Shown here piece by piece: positions 1 to 4,495 of a stretch of 4,495 bases of DNA (position 1 is its first letter; each line of letters begins with the position of its first letter). Source of the DNA: Dictyostelium discoideum (taxonomy: Eukaryota); contig CH709173.1 in NCBI GenBank assembly GCA_000004695.1, positions 1 through 4,495 on the forward strand. The letters are read 5' to 3'. Both the position numbers and the translations under genes were made by a program. A model generated the notes under the pieces. The model was given only the letters and a program-made list of their open reading frames with translations. It did not search any database and was not told where the DNA came from.

Positions 1-50
1 GATTTTTTTTTTTTTTTTAATTTTTTTTTTTTTTAAAAAAAAATTTTATT
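1..50. repeat. Homopolymer low-complexity tract (T18, T14, A9)
   Basis: Direct reading: gat(t)18aa(t)14(a)9ttttatt. It lies immediately upstream of where similarity of the pseudogene copy to the downstream gene begins. Confidence 0.9.
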
Positions 51-87
51 AACTTACCAGCTATTATTTAATTGGGTATCATTTTAT

Positions 88-767
88 TTTAAAAGAACTG
101 GTGATTGGTTTTGAAAGCATTGATATTATTGATGAAGTTGAAGAAATCTAAAATAATACTTTTTTTGGTTTTTTTTTAGATTAAATTTGCTTTTAAGGGG
201 GGTTTTTCTTCGCTGTGTATGGATTCTATATTTTTAGCAAATTTACCTATCGATGGGCACTTTTTGAGTTACAAATGAAGAGTCAATTTTTTATTTTGAA
301 ATTTATTCAGGTGTTAAATTATTAATTGAAAAAAAAAATTTTTTAGAATATTTAGATTTCTCAAAAGACTATGAGCAGGGGATTTATAAAAATTATAAAT
401 CTGGAGAACAATTTAAAAAAATAAAAAATTCAATTTTATATAAATTTATTTTATTAAGAATATTTATTGACGGAATGAGTCATCAAGGTAGATCAGATTA
501 TACTATAATGGGGGATTTTGAAAATTATGTTGGCCCATTTTTTAAAATATGCCATGCCAACTTAAAAAATGGACTGGAAATAAAATTGTTTTATTTATTG
601 TTCCAAAAGAATGGTTTTACAATATACATCAAACAATTAAAAAATTATTTTCAGCGCAATTTAATAATAAATTAATAATTAAAGATAATAATGGATATGA
701 TTATGAAATTATAACATATGGATTAACAATCACAGCGGCGAAAATCAACACTTTAAAGCACCTTTAA
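88..767 (+). pseudogene. Degenerate partial paralog (pseudogene fragment) of the C-terminal conserved domain of the gene at 2962..>4495
   Basis: Hand translation matches the downstream protein in four segments. (1) 95-150: ELVIGFESIDIIDEVEEI* vs EFLMLGIENSISLKLLEKF. (2) 219-267: MDSIFLANLPIDGHFL vs MDKLFMEDFQIKGETF. (3) 280-534 in one frame: ESIFYFEIYSGVKLLIEKKNFLEYLDFSKDYEQGIYKNYKSGEQFKKIKNSILYKFILLRIFIDGMSHQGRSDYTIMGDFENYVG vs HSIFYFEIKKVLETLLNKKQFFERIDFDTDFETGIYTNYKSGQQFKDLKNKNKNKIVLLRIFTDSMQCQNKKDYTIMLDIENYIG (about 56% identical by eye). (4) 549-767 in a different frame: KIVLFIVPKEWFYNIHQTIKKLFSAQFNNKLIIKDNNGYDYEIITYGLT vs KLLLFVVPNDWLLNFHQTIRALFSSF/GNGFNLIIENEQIDVIPFGLT. The colinear segments are separated by in-frame stops (taa 148-150, tag 235-237, tga 265-267) and a 29-nt net insertion relative to the downstream copy near 530-600. 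Similarity ends at 767, equivalent to about 4160 in the downstream gene. No zinc-finger or N/E-rich region is present upstream. Confidence 0.6.
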
Positions 768-780
768 ATCCAAGTACTCT

Positions 781-960
781 TTTTAATATATATTAATAAG
801 TATACTTAATAAGTAATACTTATTAAGTATACTTAATAAGTATACTTATTAAGTACACTTTATTAAGTATTACTTAATAAGTATACTTATTAAGTATACT
901 TTATAAGTATACTTTATAAGTACTACTTAATAAGTACACTTATTAATATATATTAATAAT
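781..960. repeat. Array of about 11 palindromic decamers AAGT(A/C)(T/A)ACTT with 12-14 bp period, flanked by inverted termini TTAATATATATTAATAAGT(A/G)TACTT
   Basis: AAGTATACTT is its own reverse complement and contains GTATAC. Copies or variants start at about 799, 813, 827, 840, 852, 866, 881, 893, 905, 917 and 932. 783-807 is the reverse complement of 932-956 with one mismatch, so the whole block is roughly self-complementary. Confidence 0.85.
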
Positions 961-1087
961 TAGTTATTATTCTTTTAAATGTTTTATATGGGAATCGAAC
1001 CCGCGACCTCCCTTTTCAGAAGTTCCGCGGATGGAATATTTTAGATGGGAATCGAACCTGTGACCTCCCTTTCCGGAAGTTCCGTTT

Positions 1088-1093
1088 AAAAAA
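1088..1093 (-). terminator. T6 run on the minus strand, 5 nt downstream of the tRNA-like unit: pol III terminator-like
   Basis: Minus strand reads ...TTCGATTCCCATATGCAACA TTTTTT AAACGG. T-runs of 4 or more terminate pol III. The 3' layout (T-loop, 5 nt, 7 nt, 1 nt, T6) mimics a tRNA gene 3' end. Confidence 0.35.
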
Positions 1094-1101
1094 TGTTGCA
1101 T

Positions 1102-1158
1102 ATGGGAATCGAACCCGTGACCTCTTACATACTAAGCTACCATATGAGCTAAATAAGC
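1102..1158 (-). pseudogene. tRNA-like pseudogene or tRNA-derived pol III unit (A-box-like plus B-box; anticodon arm too short)
   Basis: Minus-strand read: GCTTATTTAGCTCATATGGTAGCTTAGTATGTAAGAGGTCACGGGTTCGATTCCCATATG. TAGCTCATATGG resembles the A-box/D-arm (TRGCNNAGNGG), and the B-box follows about 30 nt later. The T-stem has one mismatch (ACGGG/CCCAT). Only about 16 nt lie between the D-arm and T-stem, where about 22 are needed. No 5' acceptor strand is complementary to the 3' side ATGCAAC. Hence not an intact tRNA. Confidence 0.4.
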
Positions 1159-1227
1159 TTTGATTATTTTTCAATATAAATAGCTGAAATATTAATGTAA
1201 AAAAATTAAAAAAAATAATAAAAAAAA

Positions 1228-1357
1228 TGAAACTATAAAACACAAATAAAATGATATGTTTTATTTTTTAATTTAATGTTGTATAAATCTTTGTAAATAC
1301 ACTGAGAAATAATATTCAGAATATTTCTGAAACTATAAAACATAAATAAAATGATAT
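1228..1357 (+). repeat. 30-bp direct repeat pair TGAAACTATAAAACA(C/T)AAATAAAATGATAT at 1228-1257 and 1328-1357 (exactly 100 bp apart, 1 mismatch)
   Basis: Direct comparison of the two copies. A weaker similarity of the following 20-30 nt (tctttgtaaa...gagaaataat vs tctttctgaaaaataat) suggests a diverged 100-bp tandem duplication. Confidence 0.8.
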
Positions 1358-1560
1358 TATATAAAAAATAACATAATCTTTCTGAAAAATAATTTTTTTT
1401 TTTTTTTTATTTTTTTTATTTTTATTTTTTTAGTAATTGTTGACTAAAACCTATAAATATTTTCATTTATGTAACTACTGTATTCTAAACTTTACTACAA
1501 TTATATATTTGATATGTGTTTATTATTAAATTACCATTATAAATTGTAAAAAATTACTTT

Positions 1561-1670
1561 TTTAATTTTTTTTTTTTTTTTTACCTTTTTTTTTTATCTT
1601 TAATTTTTTTTTTTCTTTTTTTTTACCTTTTTTTTTATCTTTTTTTTTTACTTTTTTTTTTTTTCCAAAA
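1561..1670. repeat. T-rich simple repeat, (T)9-14 interrupted periodically by ACC / ATC / AA
   Basis: ...t14 acc t10 atc ttt aa t12 c t9 acc t9 atc t10 ac t14 cc: about 20-bp periodic interruption of poly(T). Confidence 0.85.
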
Positions 1671-1741
1671 TATTATTGATACATTTGTTGTTAAAATACA
1701 TTGATATTATTAAAAAAATTTAAATATTTTTATGTGTGATG

Positions 1742-1775
1742 AAAAAAAATCAAAAAAAAAAAAAAAAAAAAAAAA
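1742..1775. repeat. poly(A) tract (A8 T C A24)
   Basis: Direct reading; A24 uninterrupted at 1752-1775. Confidence 0.9.
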
Positions 1776-1980
1776 TTTAGGAATTTTTTTTTAACACAAA
1801 AAAAAAATAAAAAATTTTGTAATTTTTTTTTTTTTTAACGAAAAAAATAATATAATAAAATAACAATATAAATAATAATTTAGATAAATAATTGAAATAA
1901 AATAAATAATATGAACACAAGAATAAAAATTTAAATAAAAACAAATATGCTTTATTCACAGCAAAGAAAAATGCACCTTT

Positions 1981-2040
1981 AAAGCCAATTTAAAGCAAAT
2001 ACAATTTAAATTGGCTTTAAATTGGCTTTAAATTTGCTTT
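1981..2040. repeat. Inverted repeat built from mirrored 11-bp units: AAAGCCAATTT-AAAGCAAAT | ACAATTT | AAATTGGCTTT-AAATTGGCTTT-AAATTTGCTTT
   Basis: AAATTGGCTTT (2008-2018, 2019-2029) is the reverse complement of AAAGCCAATTT (1981-1991). AAATTTGCTTT (2030-2040) is the reverse complement of AAAGCAAATTT, matching 1992-2000 with a small insertion. A hairpin or cruciform with tandemly repeated arms can form. Confidence 0.8.
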
Positions 2041-2100
2041 TTAAAAAGGTAATTTTAAAGATATTTTTAAGGTCATTTAAAATTACATTAAAAATGACCT

Positions 2101-2161
2101 TTTAAATTTATTATAAAGCGGTTTTTAAATAATGTTTTAATCACTTTATAATAAATTTAAA
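2101..2161. repeat. Perfect 18-bp inverted repeat TTTAAATTTATTATAAAG ... CTTTATAATAAATTTAAA with a 25-bp spacer
   Basis: 2101-2118 is the exact reverse complement of 2144-2161. Adjacent smaller inverted repeats: AAGGTCATTT 2069-2078 / AAATGACCTT 2092-2101; GTAATTTT 2049-2056 / AAAATTAC 2079-2086; near-palindrome GTAATTTAAAATTAC 2177-2191. Confidence 0.9.
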
Positions 2162-2237
2162 AAAGTTATTTTTAATGTAATTTAAAATTACTTATTAATC
2201 CTTTTTTAAGCTTTTATTAATTATATTTTTTAAAATA

Positions 2238-2270
2238 CATTTTAAATGCATTTTAAATACATTTCAAATC
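2238..2270 (+). repeat. 3 x 11-bp tandem repeat CATTTTAAAT(G/A) / CATTTCAAATC
   Basis: cattttaaatg cattttaaata catttcaaatc read directly. Confidence 0.7.
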
Positions 2271-2302
2271 AATTTTTACACTATTTATTTCAAATTTATT
2301 AT

Positions 2303-2375
2303 AAAAAAAAAAAAAAATAAGAAAATAAAAAAAAAAAAAAAAAAATTAAGAAAATTAAAAAAAAAAAAAAACTAA
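2303..2375. repeat. A-rich low complexity with periodic TAAGAAAAT / TTAAGAAAATT insertions
   Basis: a15 taagaaaat a20 ttaagaaaatt a14 ct a5. Confidence 0.85.
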
Positions 2376-2753
2376 AAAGATAACCAAATTAATTTTAATT
2401 CTTTATTTATTTGTTCCAGTGGCAATTGAATTCTATTATTATTATTTTTATTAATTAATAATAAATAAGTGTTTCAGTTGCCTTGGGTTTTATTTTATGT
2501 TATTTTAAATTTTACTTCTCATTTCAAAAAGCGAAAAATATCAAAAAAAAAAAAAAAAAAAAAATTTAATTATTTGTTTTGCATATTTATATTATAAGTA
2601 TAAACATACATATAAAAAAAGATTTTTTATTTTTTATTTTTTATAATTAATAAACAATTAACGAGTGCACAGGTATATTATTGCATTAGTGTAGTTTTAC
2701 AATAAATTGGGCAGATTTTATAGTTTTTTTTTTTTTTATTTTAAAAAGAAAAA

Positions 2754-2830
2754 GGTATAGACAGGGTCATAGGTTCCCCGTCATTTTTTGAAAATGGGGT
2801 ATATCCCTCTAAATATAAAATTTTAAGTAC
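2754..2830 (+). promoter_or_regulatory. GC-containing island with imperfect palindrome CCCCGTCATTTTTTGAAAATGGGG (2776-2799) and TATA-like ATATAAAA (2813-2820); candidate promoter/enhancer of the gene at 2962
   Basis: It is the only G/C-bearing segment in about 500 bp of >90% AT sequence. It lies about 130-210 bp upstream of an ATG in AAAATG context, and TATA-like elements at 2813-2820 and 2851-2857 follow it. No TSS data are available, so this is positional inference. Confidence 0.3.
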
Positions 2831-2961
2831 TAAATCATATATCTACTTGCTATAATGCTAAAATTTGAATAAAATGAAAAAAAAAAAAAAAAAAAAAACG
2901 TAAAAACTCGAGGAAAAAAAAAAAAAAAAATATTATTTTTAATTTCCAGCCAGCAAACAAA

Positions 2962-4095
2962 ATGAATTTAAATAACATATCATGCATTAATTGCAGAGAA
3001 AAATTAAAGAATTTTAAAAATATTATTATTCATTATATTATGCATAAAAATATATGTCCATTTTGTCTTGCATATTACCGTTCTTATAAACAATTTTATG
3101 ATGTAAATGGACATTTCAACACCAAAAAATGTAAAAATGAACAAAATAAAATTATTACAAATAATCAAAAAAGAGATATCTTTTATAAAAAATTAATGGA
3201 TATTACTGGTGAAAAAATAAAATATCCAACAAATGATCCAGATGACCCATGTAAACATTTATGTAACCAAAACCAAGATGAAATTTTTTATCAAGAAAAT
3301 AATGAAAATAATGAAAATAATCAAACAATTGATAATGTAGAAAATCATGATATAATTGGGTTGGTACATAGTGAAGATGAAAACAATGAAATTAGAATAG
3401 ATGAAAATGAAGCAAACATTAATAATGAAAATAATGAAAATAATGAAAATGAAAATGCTCAAAACGAACCAATAAATAATAATCTAAATAATAATTTAGA
3501 TAATGAAAAATCAAAAAAAAAATTAAATGAGACTGAAATTGAATTTTTAATGTTGGGAATTGAAAACTCAATAAGTTTAAAGCTACTTGAAAAATTTAAA
3601 AGTTTTATTGACAAAAATAAAACCAATTTAAATCAAATAAGATACACACCTCAATATATGGATAAATTATTTATGGAAGATTTTCAAATAAAAGGAGAAA
3701 CATTTATAAATAAAAATTATGATCACTCAATTTTTTATTTTGAAATTAAAAAAGTATTAGAAACTTTATTAAATAAAAAGCAATTTTTTGAAAGAATAGA
3801 TTTTGATACAGATTTTGAAACTGGAATTTATACAAATTATAAAAGTGGTCAACAATTTAAAGATTTAAAAAATAAAAATAAAAATAAAATTGTATTACTT
3901 AGAATATTCACTGATAGTATGCAGTGTCAAAACAAGAAAGATTATACTATAATGCTGGATATAGAAAATTATATTGGAAATGAATTTAAAAATAATAAAT
4001 TATTATTATTTGTAGTACCAAATGATTGGTTACTTAATTTTCATCAAACAATTAGGGCATTGTTTTCATCTTTTTTGGTAATGGCTTTAATTTAA
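2962..4095 (+). CDS. Protein with two N-terminal C2H2-type zinc fingers, an N/E-rich low-complexity linker and a conserved C-terminal domain of unknown function (possible transposase-like or domesticated element protein); segment upstream of a -1 frame break
   Basis: 377-codon ORF from the track. ATG at 2962 in AAAATGAAT context, preceded by an in-frame TAA. Residues 8-28: C-x2-C-x12-H-x3-H with a hydrophobic C-x3-L-x5-I-x2-H pattern (classic C2H2). Residues 32-57: C-x2-C-x15-H-x5-C. Residues about 112-186 are an N/E repeat (NNENNENNE...). Residues about 190-377 are conserved with the upstream pseudogene copy. AT3-biased codon usage is consistent with the surrounding genome. Confidence 0.75.
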   Translation: MNLNNISCINCREKLKNFKNIIIHYIMHKNICPFCLAYYRSYKQFYDVNGHFNTKKCKNEQNKIITNNQKRDIFYKKLMDITGEKIKYPTNDPDDPCKHLCNQNQDEIFYQENNENNENNQTIDNVENHDIIGLVHSEDENNEIRIDENEANINNENNENNENENAQNEPINNNLNNNLDNEKSKKKLNETEIEFLMLGIENSISLKLLEKFKSFIDKNKTNLNQIRYTPQYMDKLFMEDFQIKGETFINKNYDHSIFYFEIKKVLETLLNKKQFFERIDFDTDFETGIYTNYKSGQQFKDLKNKNKNKIVLLRIFTDSMQCQNKKDYTIMLDIENYIGNEFKNNKLLLFVVPNDWLLNFHQTIRALFSSFLVMALI

Positions 4096-4495
4096 TTATT
4101 GAAAATGAACAAATAGATGTTATACCGTTTGGACTGACAATGGATATTCCAGAATTTAGAGCATCGTGTAAACTTAATGGACATAATTCAAATGAATATG
4201 CATGTCACACATGTGACAAACCAAGAGATGGTTTATTTATTTGCCATTCAGGTACATTAACAAAACAAGAAGATATTACAAATTTTCACTCCACCAAACC
4301 AAATTATGCTGAATTAAATGCTGATATAGAATTAAAAAAAATATGGGAAAAAAAAGCAAAAGATATTGGTATCAAAGGTGTGGGCAGAGGGTGGGTCGAA
4401 CCTTTGTCCATTAATTATTTAAAAACACAACCAGACATATTACATAATATTTTATTAGGTGTCGCACAAAGATGTTTATATTACAATTTTGATAA
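4056..4495 (+). CDS. Continuation of the same gene in the -1 frame (3' partial, open to the window end)
   Basis: The frame with codons starting at multiples of 3 is open from 4056 to 4495. Its hand translation begins GIVFIFFGNGFNLIIENEQIDVIPFGLTMDIPEFRASCKLNGHNSNEYACHTCDKPRDGLFICHSG... and continues VGRGWVEPLSINYLKTQPDILHNILLGVAQRCLYYNFD. Its start (FGNGFNLII...IPFGLT) is colinear with the upstream paralog (FNNKLII...ITYGLT). One extra T in the run 4071-4076 would fuse it to the 2962 ORF. Confidence 0.55.

Follow-up and report, generated by a model that had tools for sequence, protein, structure and literature searches.

A Dictyostelium discoideum repeat carries what is very probably the catalytic core of a TNP2-like, CMC(T)-clade transposase

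Cut-and-paste DNA transposons differ in the length of the target sequence that they duplicate: 8 base pairs (bp) for hAT and P elements, 9 bp for MULE elements and, within the CACTA/Mirage/Chapaev(/Transib) or CMC(T) clade, 2 bp for Mirage, with Transib at the 5-bp end of the range of the clade. Elements of this clade mostly have CA..TG termini and target duplications of 2–5 bp (PMC12730594), and Chapaev elements have 5′-CAC...GTG-3′ termini and duplications of 3–4 bp (PMC4079192). Zisupton elements have 8-bp duplications (PMC12730594). Here we analyse a stretch of 4,495 nucleotides from Dictyostelium discoideum (GenBank assembly GCA_000004695.1, contig CH709173.1, positions 1 to 4,495 of the forward strand), which we call the window and to which all coordinates without a locus name refer. 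The window has a base composition of 20% G+C and carries a transposase open reading frame (ORF) whose region 3535–4495, described in a first-pass annotation as a conserved C-terminal domain of unknown family, is with high probability most of the catalytic core of a TNP2-like DDE cut-and-paste transposase of the CMC(T) clade.

The repeats of D. discoideum were reportedly catalogued in 2001 by Glockner et al., with DDT-A, DDT-B and DDT-S among them. DDT, for Dictyostelium DNA Transposon, makes up ~20% of the centromeric regions, is highly fragmented and lies preferentially among its own kind (PMC2665215). The DDT-B consensus is 5471 bp long and contains within its first 428 nucleotides a tRNA-like A/B-box motif that is the target used by the retrotransposon TRE5-A; the DDT elements are still called 'putative DNA transposons', with no superfamily given (PMC9012585). 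We found no title or abstract that makes a CMC assignment of DDT by linking Dictyostelium with CACTA or Chapaev, and no mention of the identifiers of the genes described below in papers or in one supplement; the assignment may already be in Repbase.

The transposase ORF occupies two frames of the window, joined at a frameshift (sources in brackets).

2962 to 4076, plus strand: first frame of the transposase ORF, with the N-terminal fingers, an Asn-rich linker, a helical region and the first strands of the catalytic core (ORF list, translation)
4077 to 4495, plus strand: second frame of the transposase ORF, continuing past the window end (ORF list, translation)
4068 to 4077, plus strand: frameshift by a 1-nucleotide deletion (comparison of copies; the AX4 model P0015 starts downstream)

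The close protein matches of this ORF are all from D. discoideum and are labelled 'hypothetical protein' in public annotation; one of them, P0001, is 93% identical to the product of 2962–4076. At the frameshift the window reads TCTTTTTTGG; of four further copies compared, three have TCTTTTAT[TC]GG, encoding SSFIGNG. The first residue of the AX4 gene model DDB_G0267190 (P0015) is the Met of GLTMDIPEF, and 1 residue separates this model from the window product; since this reference-strain model begins just past the shift site, a real frameshift fits better than a read error. The conserved domain at 3535–4495 is real, though broken by the deletion at 4068–4077, and the proposal that one additional T would restore the frame was right about the number of bases and wrong about the base, which is an A. 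An intron at 4077 was considered in place of the frameshift and ruled out: the downstream 'LII' block is coding in both copies within the window, and a single extra base is the sole difference at this point in those three copies. The window copy of the transposase is a dead pseudogene, frameshifted at 4068–4077 and cut into fragments by the AX4 annotation; because it is frameshifted and fragmented it is incapable of transposition. An intact counterpart is found at another locus, L004, as a single-exon transposase gene of 831 codons. Exact-sequence look-ups of P0015 and of the 377-residue ORF of the window, aimed at the DNA past 4495, returned no record.

Direct searches placed neither the window protein nor its Dictyostelium relatives. 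A Pfam scan of single sequences (the window protein and 22 family members) returned no transposase model and only weak zinc-finger noise; PF02992 (Transposase_21) and PF13960 (DUF4218) were not matched by the window protein or by the Dictyostelium members even at expectation (E) values of up to 1–10. Because there was no direct sequence match to Pfam or to a solved structure, the family assignment rests on profile–profile and fold comparison. When 1.8 billion representatives were searched exhaustively with a profile built from Dictyostelium sequences alone, 23 proteins came up, of which seven are distant relatives (E 2e-6 to 6e-4); four of these seven weakly match Pfam DUF4218, a domain that accompanies TNP2 transposases. 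A second profile search with the distant relatives included recovered full-length Dictyostelium copies together with metazoan proteins of about 800 residues. Among such intermediate relatives, P0056 matches the Transposase_21 'tnp2' model at 28.6 bits, equal to the curated cutoff, with weaker scores for P0041, P0057, P0073 and P0075; P0073 scores 27.4 bits with DUF4218, whose cutoff is 27; P0057 weakly matches Plavaka; and P0075 weakly matches the nematode family DUF1258. The gathering thresholds of Transposase_21 and DUF4218 are reached by P0056 and P0073 only, and the sequence link to recognised TNP2/DUF4218/Plavaka members is an indirect one through the metazoan intermediates. One further relative, P0076, had suggested an affinity with hAT and was set aside: its hAT domain lies at the N-terminal end (residues 93–146) of what is apparently a gene-model fusion on a contig of 3.4 kb.

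In an unmixed test, 15 Dictyostelium proteins (alignment A6) and 17 non-Dictyostelium proteins (alignment A7) were aligned apart and their profiles compared by hhalign. The two profiles matched with a probability of 98.6% and an E value of 5.1e-16 over 472 columns, with all motifs in register. The Dictyostelium strings LLRIFSDSM, GLTMD, CHTC, PDILHNILLG and FHLLLHYP...SAETFEAQ were thereby paired with the metazoan TNP2-like strings IHLYSDELEV, SVISADN, CRYC, PDVMHDFLEG and MHFLLHYP...CMRFEAKH, respectively. The family that could not be matched confidently to hAT, MULE or other signatures at first reading is identifiable, as TNP2-like CMC(T), and is neither hAT nor MULE.

Conservation was then read from an alignment of 30 sequences, Dictyostelium proteins and metazoan relatives together (alignment A5), with residues numbered after the full-length relative P0043. 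Within the window the following motifs are concerned.

3913 to 3915, plus strand: candidate first catalytic Asp (in LLRIFTDSM; D310), D in 28 of the 28 residues present, in predicted strand beta1
4143 to 4145, plus strand: candidate second catalytic Asp (in GLTMD; D387), D in all 30 sequences, at the end of the predicted strand 375–387
4203 to 4214, plus strand: C-x2-C (CHTC), C in 29 of the 29 residues present at both columns, a defining motif of the clade (PMC12730594)
4434 to 4445, plus strand: D-x2-H (in PDILHNILLG), D and H in 28 of the 28 residues present, aligned with TNP2-like PDVMHDFLEG

D387, R426 and E636 are invariant in this alignment, and D310, C407, C410, D484 and H487 are invariant wherever the residue is present. 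H612 and H616 (FHLLLH), past the window end, are H in 28 of the 29 residues present. The mapping of conserved acidic residues that the first-pass annotation had proposed as a check thus yields D, D and E columns that are invariant across Dictyostelium and metazoan relatives. Of the acids that it had singled out, the D of GLTMD stands as a conserved catalytic candidate, whereas those of IMLDIE and VPNDW are conserved within Dictyostelium only and vary outside it; two of the three catalytic positions had been missed, the first D lying in the LLRIFTDSM block and the E beyond the window. A similar division applies to the Cys/His cluster that had been suggested as a second zinc-binding module: the C-x2-C of CHTC is conserved, while the Cys of CKLNG and that of FICHSG are conserved within Dictyostelium only. 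The H-x3-H that partners C-x2-C in the clade is found ~200 residues downstream, and by analogy with RAG1 CHTC would be half of a zinc site, paired with that H-x3-H.

An AlphaFold model was made for P0043 with the 30-sequence alignment as input. Its mean predicted local distance difference test score (pLDDT) is 57, with values of about 60–85 over residues 250–650. Beta strands are predicted at 302–314, 317–326, 339–345, 368–372 and 375–387, in agreement with the earlier description of the conserved blocks as hydrophobic strands, and the core follows the order strand, strand, strand, helix, strand, strand, helix, which is an RNase H-like arrangement. D310 falls within the first strand, E636 is in a helix, and D387 closes strand 375–387. 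A Foldseek search with this model returned four RAG1 chains (E 1.2e-6 to 4.2e-5; best probability 1.00) and no other match at E ≤ 0.001; in fold comparison the RAG1 and Transib cores were best, and a Mutator-family IS transposase, Hermes and retroviral integrases ranked lower. The model predicts a DDE triad of D310, D387 and E636, a candidate active site, on an RNase H-like fold to which RAG1 comes nearest, and the suspicion of an RNase H-like/DDE core, voiced at first from the pattern of hydrophobic strands, is borne out by the predicted structure, the fold search and the invariant triad.

The same data bear on whether the region might be a non-enzymatic DNA-binding or structural domain in which the acids are incidental. 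The empty Pfam and PDB searches with single proteins would suit such a domain, but the three columns D, D and E do not vary between Dictyostelium and its metazoan relatives, unlike the acids next to them, and in fold the model resembles the RAG1 and Transib catalytic cores; we consider this explanation extremely unlikely.

At the other end of the transposase, the translation bears out the pair of C2H2-like fingers noted earlier.

2983 to 3132, plus strand: two zinc-finger-like motifs, C-x2-C-x12-H-x3-H followed by C-x2-C-x15-H-x5-C (translation)

In the P0043 model, residues 7–47 form strand–strand–helix twice (pLDDT 65–79). Pfam gives only weak zinc-finger matches in the finger region, and the metazoan relatives carry the name 'C2H2-type domain' proteins.

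The transposase belongs to a D. discoideum DNA transposon of ~5.0–5.6 kb, which carries a transposase gene for ~830 residues and a smaller second ORF. DNA similarity of the window to other copies begins exactly at 1957, with CACAGCAAAG, and two features mark this left end.

1957 to 1995, plus strand: left terminal inverted repeat (CACAGCAAAGAAAAATGCACC...), where similarity to other copies starts and which corresponds to 39-nucleotide arms in locus L001
1957 to 2300, plus strand: subterminal region with short direct and inverted repeats, including TTTAAAGC four times at 1978–2032 (repeat listing)

TTTAAAGC at 1978–2032 is found in both orientations and occurs 6 times in the whole window against 1.03 expected; in the L001 copy, window 2005–2246 has an inverted match at the opposite end. 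Complete units were delimited at L001 8135–13190 (5056 bp, with 39-nucleotide inverted termini that are 90% complementary), L003 4218–9251 (5034 bp) and L004 3979–9558 (5580 bp). Two short units in L002, at 13036–13809 (774 bp) and 15366–16121 (756 bp), share the CACAG...CTGTG termini, are likewise flanked by 2-bp duplications and are probably non-autonomous derivatives. These termini are present in L001, L002, L003 and L004, and the left terminus type seen at window 1957 recurs many times across the four loci. Downstream of the transposase lies a second gene for ~276 residues, apparently intron-containing (L004 7619–8610; L003 7676–8630; L001 11680–12665); its pieces gave no Pfam match. The first-pass annotation had suggested a multicopy, DNA-transposase-derived protein, and both parts hold: the family numbers more than 40 D. 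discoideum proteins, copies are numerous, and the ORF lies within a multicopy DNA transposon and has a TNP2-like profile match.

All five complete units are flanked by identical dinucleotides (CT, TA, TT, AA and TG), a result whose chance at this base composition we estimate at ~2e-5. The flanks point to a target-site duplication of 2 bp; a 3-bp duplication was ruled out by the third flanking base, which is unmatched in L001 and in L002 13036–13809. The length of the duplication also bears on the possibility that the protein belongs to a different superfamily of DDE transposases (hAT, MULE/Mutator, P or KDZ/Zisupton), to which we give a very low probability: the relatives match Pfam TNP2, DUF4218 and Plavaka only, the C-x2-C and H-x3-H signatures of the CMC(T) clade are present, and the duplications are of 2 bp, not 8 bp as in Zisupton.

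The dN/dS ratio (nonsynonymous to synonymous substitution rates) between subfamily copies is 0.16–0.27, which shows purifying selection on the transposase ORF. A domesticated host gene family, derived from a transposase and no longer part of a mobile element, would likewise show a dN/dS below 1, and its products might well be annotated 'hypothetical protein', as they are here. Several findings speak against such a family: the units that contain the ORF have inverted termini and are flanked by 2-bp duplications; these termini recur in short derivatives of 756–774 bp; the copies are numerous, nested, truncated and frameshifted; and family copies turned up in five different assemblies, at positions that may or may not be orthologous. 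Domestication accordingly has only a minute chance of being the better description, and we regard the ORF as the transposase gene of a mobile element. One neighbour of the element was seen at L004 9650–10885, a 411-residue ORF that matches Pfam DDE_1 (pogo-type) and directly follows another ...GCTGTG terminus, at L004 9650; this ORF belongs to a different transposon family, which adjoins the 5-kb element.

The window copy sits in a nest of related elements inserted one into another. The transposase ORF at 2962–4495 is copy 2 of the window; upstream of it are the remains of at least the following.

168 to 217, plus strand: inverted terminus at the right end of another such element (...CTTCGCTGTG; ...AAGGGGGGTTTTTCTTCGCTGTG; terminus search)
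277 to 731, in a fragment spanning 218–730, plus strand: copy 1, a frameshifted transposase fragment of a second subfamily (P0042/P0049 type; tblastn)
731 to 1229, plus strand: left end (CACAGCGGCGAAAATC...) of a related element that has inserted into copy 1 (matches L002 17860–17390)
1151 to 1140, minus strand: A-box-like TAGCTCATATGG in the element at 731
1115 to 1105, minus strand: B box GGTTCGATTCC in the element at 731
1058 to 1048 and 1001 to 991, minus strand: further B boxes in the element at 731

A tblastn comparison of frame-corrected copy 2 with window 1–960 gave an E value of 1.6e-32, with 55.6% identity over 90 residues in segment 277–546 and 40% identity over 57 residues in segment 567–731, which is in a different frame; the blocks said to be conserved between the two window copies are all real. 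Copy 1 matches L002 DNA at 89%. Its subfamily is diverged, with about 50% identity, and the same peptide strings occur in P0022, P0042 and P0049. Copy 1 ends at GLT because at 731 it is interrupted by the left terminus (CACAGCGGCG...) of another, inserted element, and with termini at 217 and 731 the fragment 218–730 is bounded by the outward-facing termini of two other insertions. The tRNA-promoter-like boxes of the element at 731 fall within 967–1151; the A box and the B box at 1115–1105 lie about 375–420 nucleotides from its end, and the three B boxes are in ~57-nucleotide repeats. ARAGORN and Rfam searches of these tRNA-like fragments returned no tRNA and nothing above the gathering score.

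Three further observations concern these surroundings. Within the element at 731, window 780–960 is dense in palindromic and tandem AATAAGTATACTT-type repeats and gave only sub-threshold, microRNA-like Rfam matches. Window 1230–1956 and 2300–2960, between the elements and upstream of the ORF, are very A+T-rich, with long runs of poly(A), poly(T) and (T)nA/C. A larger nest, with at least 10 such termini, occupies L002 8600–17900.

The elements in the window most probably belong to DDT, the 5-kb element among them, and its protein would be the DDT transposase. The 5-kb element and DDT share the D. discoideum host, a length of about 5–5.5 kb, and a fragmented state with nesting in clusters of their own kind, as in the window and in L002; in addition, the A/B-box motif of the element at 731, some 410–420 nucleotides from its end, fits the position reported for DDT-B, within nucleotides 1–428.

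If the transposase works as RAG1, Transib and CACTA transposases do, its N-terminal zinc fingers and helical region would bind the terminal and subterminal repeats of the element. The RNase H-like core would, by the same homology, position two metal ions through D310, D387 and E636, and this DDE core would nick and release the ends of the element, which would then be joined to target DNA with a 2-bp stagger. The C-x2-C at 4203–4214 and the downstream H-x3-H are expected to hold a structural zinc as in RAG1, where a single zinc is held by C727 and C730 together with H937 and H942. In RAG1 the Cys pair lies ~20 residues after the second D and the His pair ~20 before the E, presumably the same spacing as in the Dictyostelium protein.

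Several points weigh against the assignment to the CMC(T) clade and the description of the element built on it. No Dictyostelium family member alone matches any Pfam transposase model, and a PDB sequence search with the protein and with the 30-sequence profile gave weak C2H2 finger matches only. The candidate catalytic E (E636, in SAETFEAQ) and the H-x3-H are located past the window end. The structural model is that of the relative P0043, not the window protein, and is of modest confidence overall. The 2-bp duplication is deduced from the flanks, and the agreement with DDT is circumstantial, the name being deduced from it.

What we describe is an ordinary decayed mobile element and no new kind of system; its modest value lies in classifying a family of Dictyostelium that had gone unannotated. 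With this classification, a name is given to dozens of models annotated as 'hypothetical protein', both in the D. discoideum reference and among new assemblies of strains, and the DDT elements, long known but unclassified, are assigned to a defined transposase clade, with predictions for their catalytic residues, termini and duplication length. The recorded range of RAG1-related (CMC/Transib-type) transposases would thereby extend to a social amoeba, and concrete residues and ends are supplied for mobility tests.

Compared with known systems, the Dictyostelium element stands apart from hAT, lacking the combination of hAT dimerisation domain and 8-bp duplication, and from KDZ, since neither the family nor its relatives match KDZ in Pfam and the duplication is 2 bp as against 8 bp in Zisupton. 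The RAG1, RAG1-like and Transib cores (4WWX, 6DBI, 6B40 and 6PQN) share ~12% identity with it in structural alignments and no detectable sequence similarity, even with the 30-sequence profile; unlike RAG1, the Dictyostelium element has no RAG2-like partner. EnSpm/CACTA in the strict sense does not fit, the termini being CACAG and the duplication 2 bp here, against CACTA and 3 bp; Chapaev likewise differs in its duplication of 3–4 bp, whereas the 2 bp of the Dictyostelium element agree with the value for Mirage. From the CMC/CMCT clade as a whole, which comprises EnSpm/CACTA, Mirage and Chapaev along with Transib, Plavaka and others, the element differs in its amoebozoan host and in proteins too diverged for a direct match to any Pfam model. 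It has in common with the clade the predicted DDE triad, the C-x2-C, H-x3-H and D-x2-H motifs, the 5′-CAC...GTG-3′ termini, a short (2-bp) putative duplication, subterminal repeats and a second ORF within the element.

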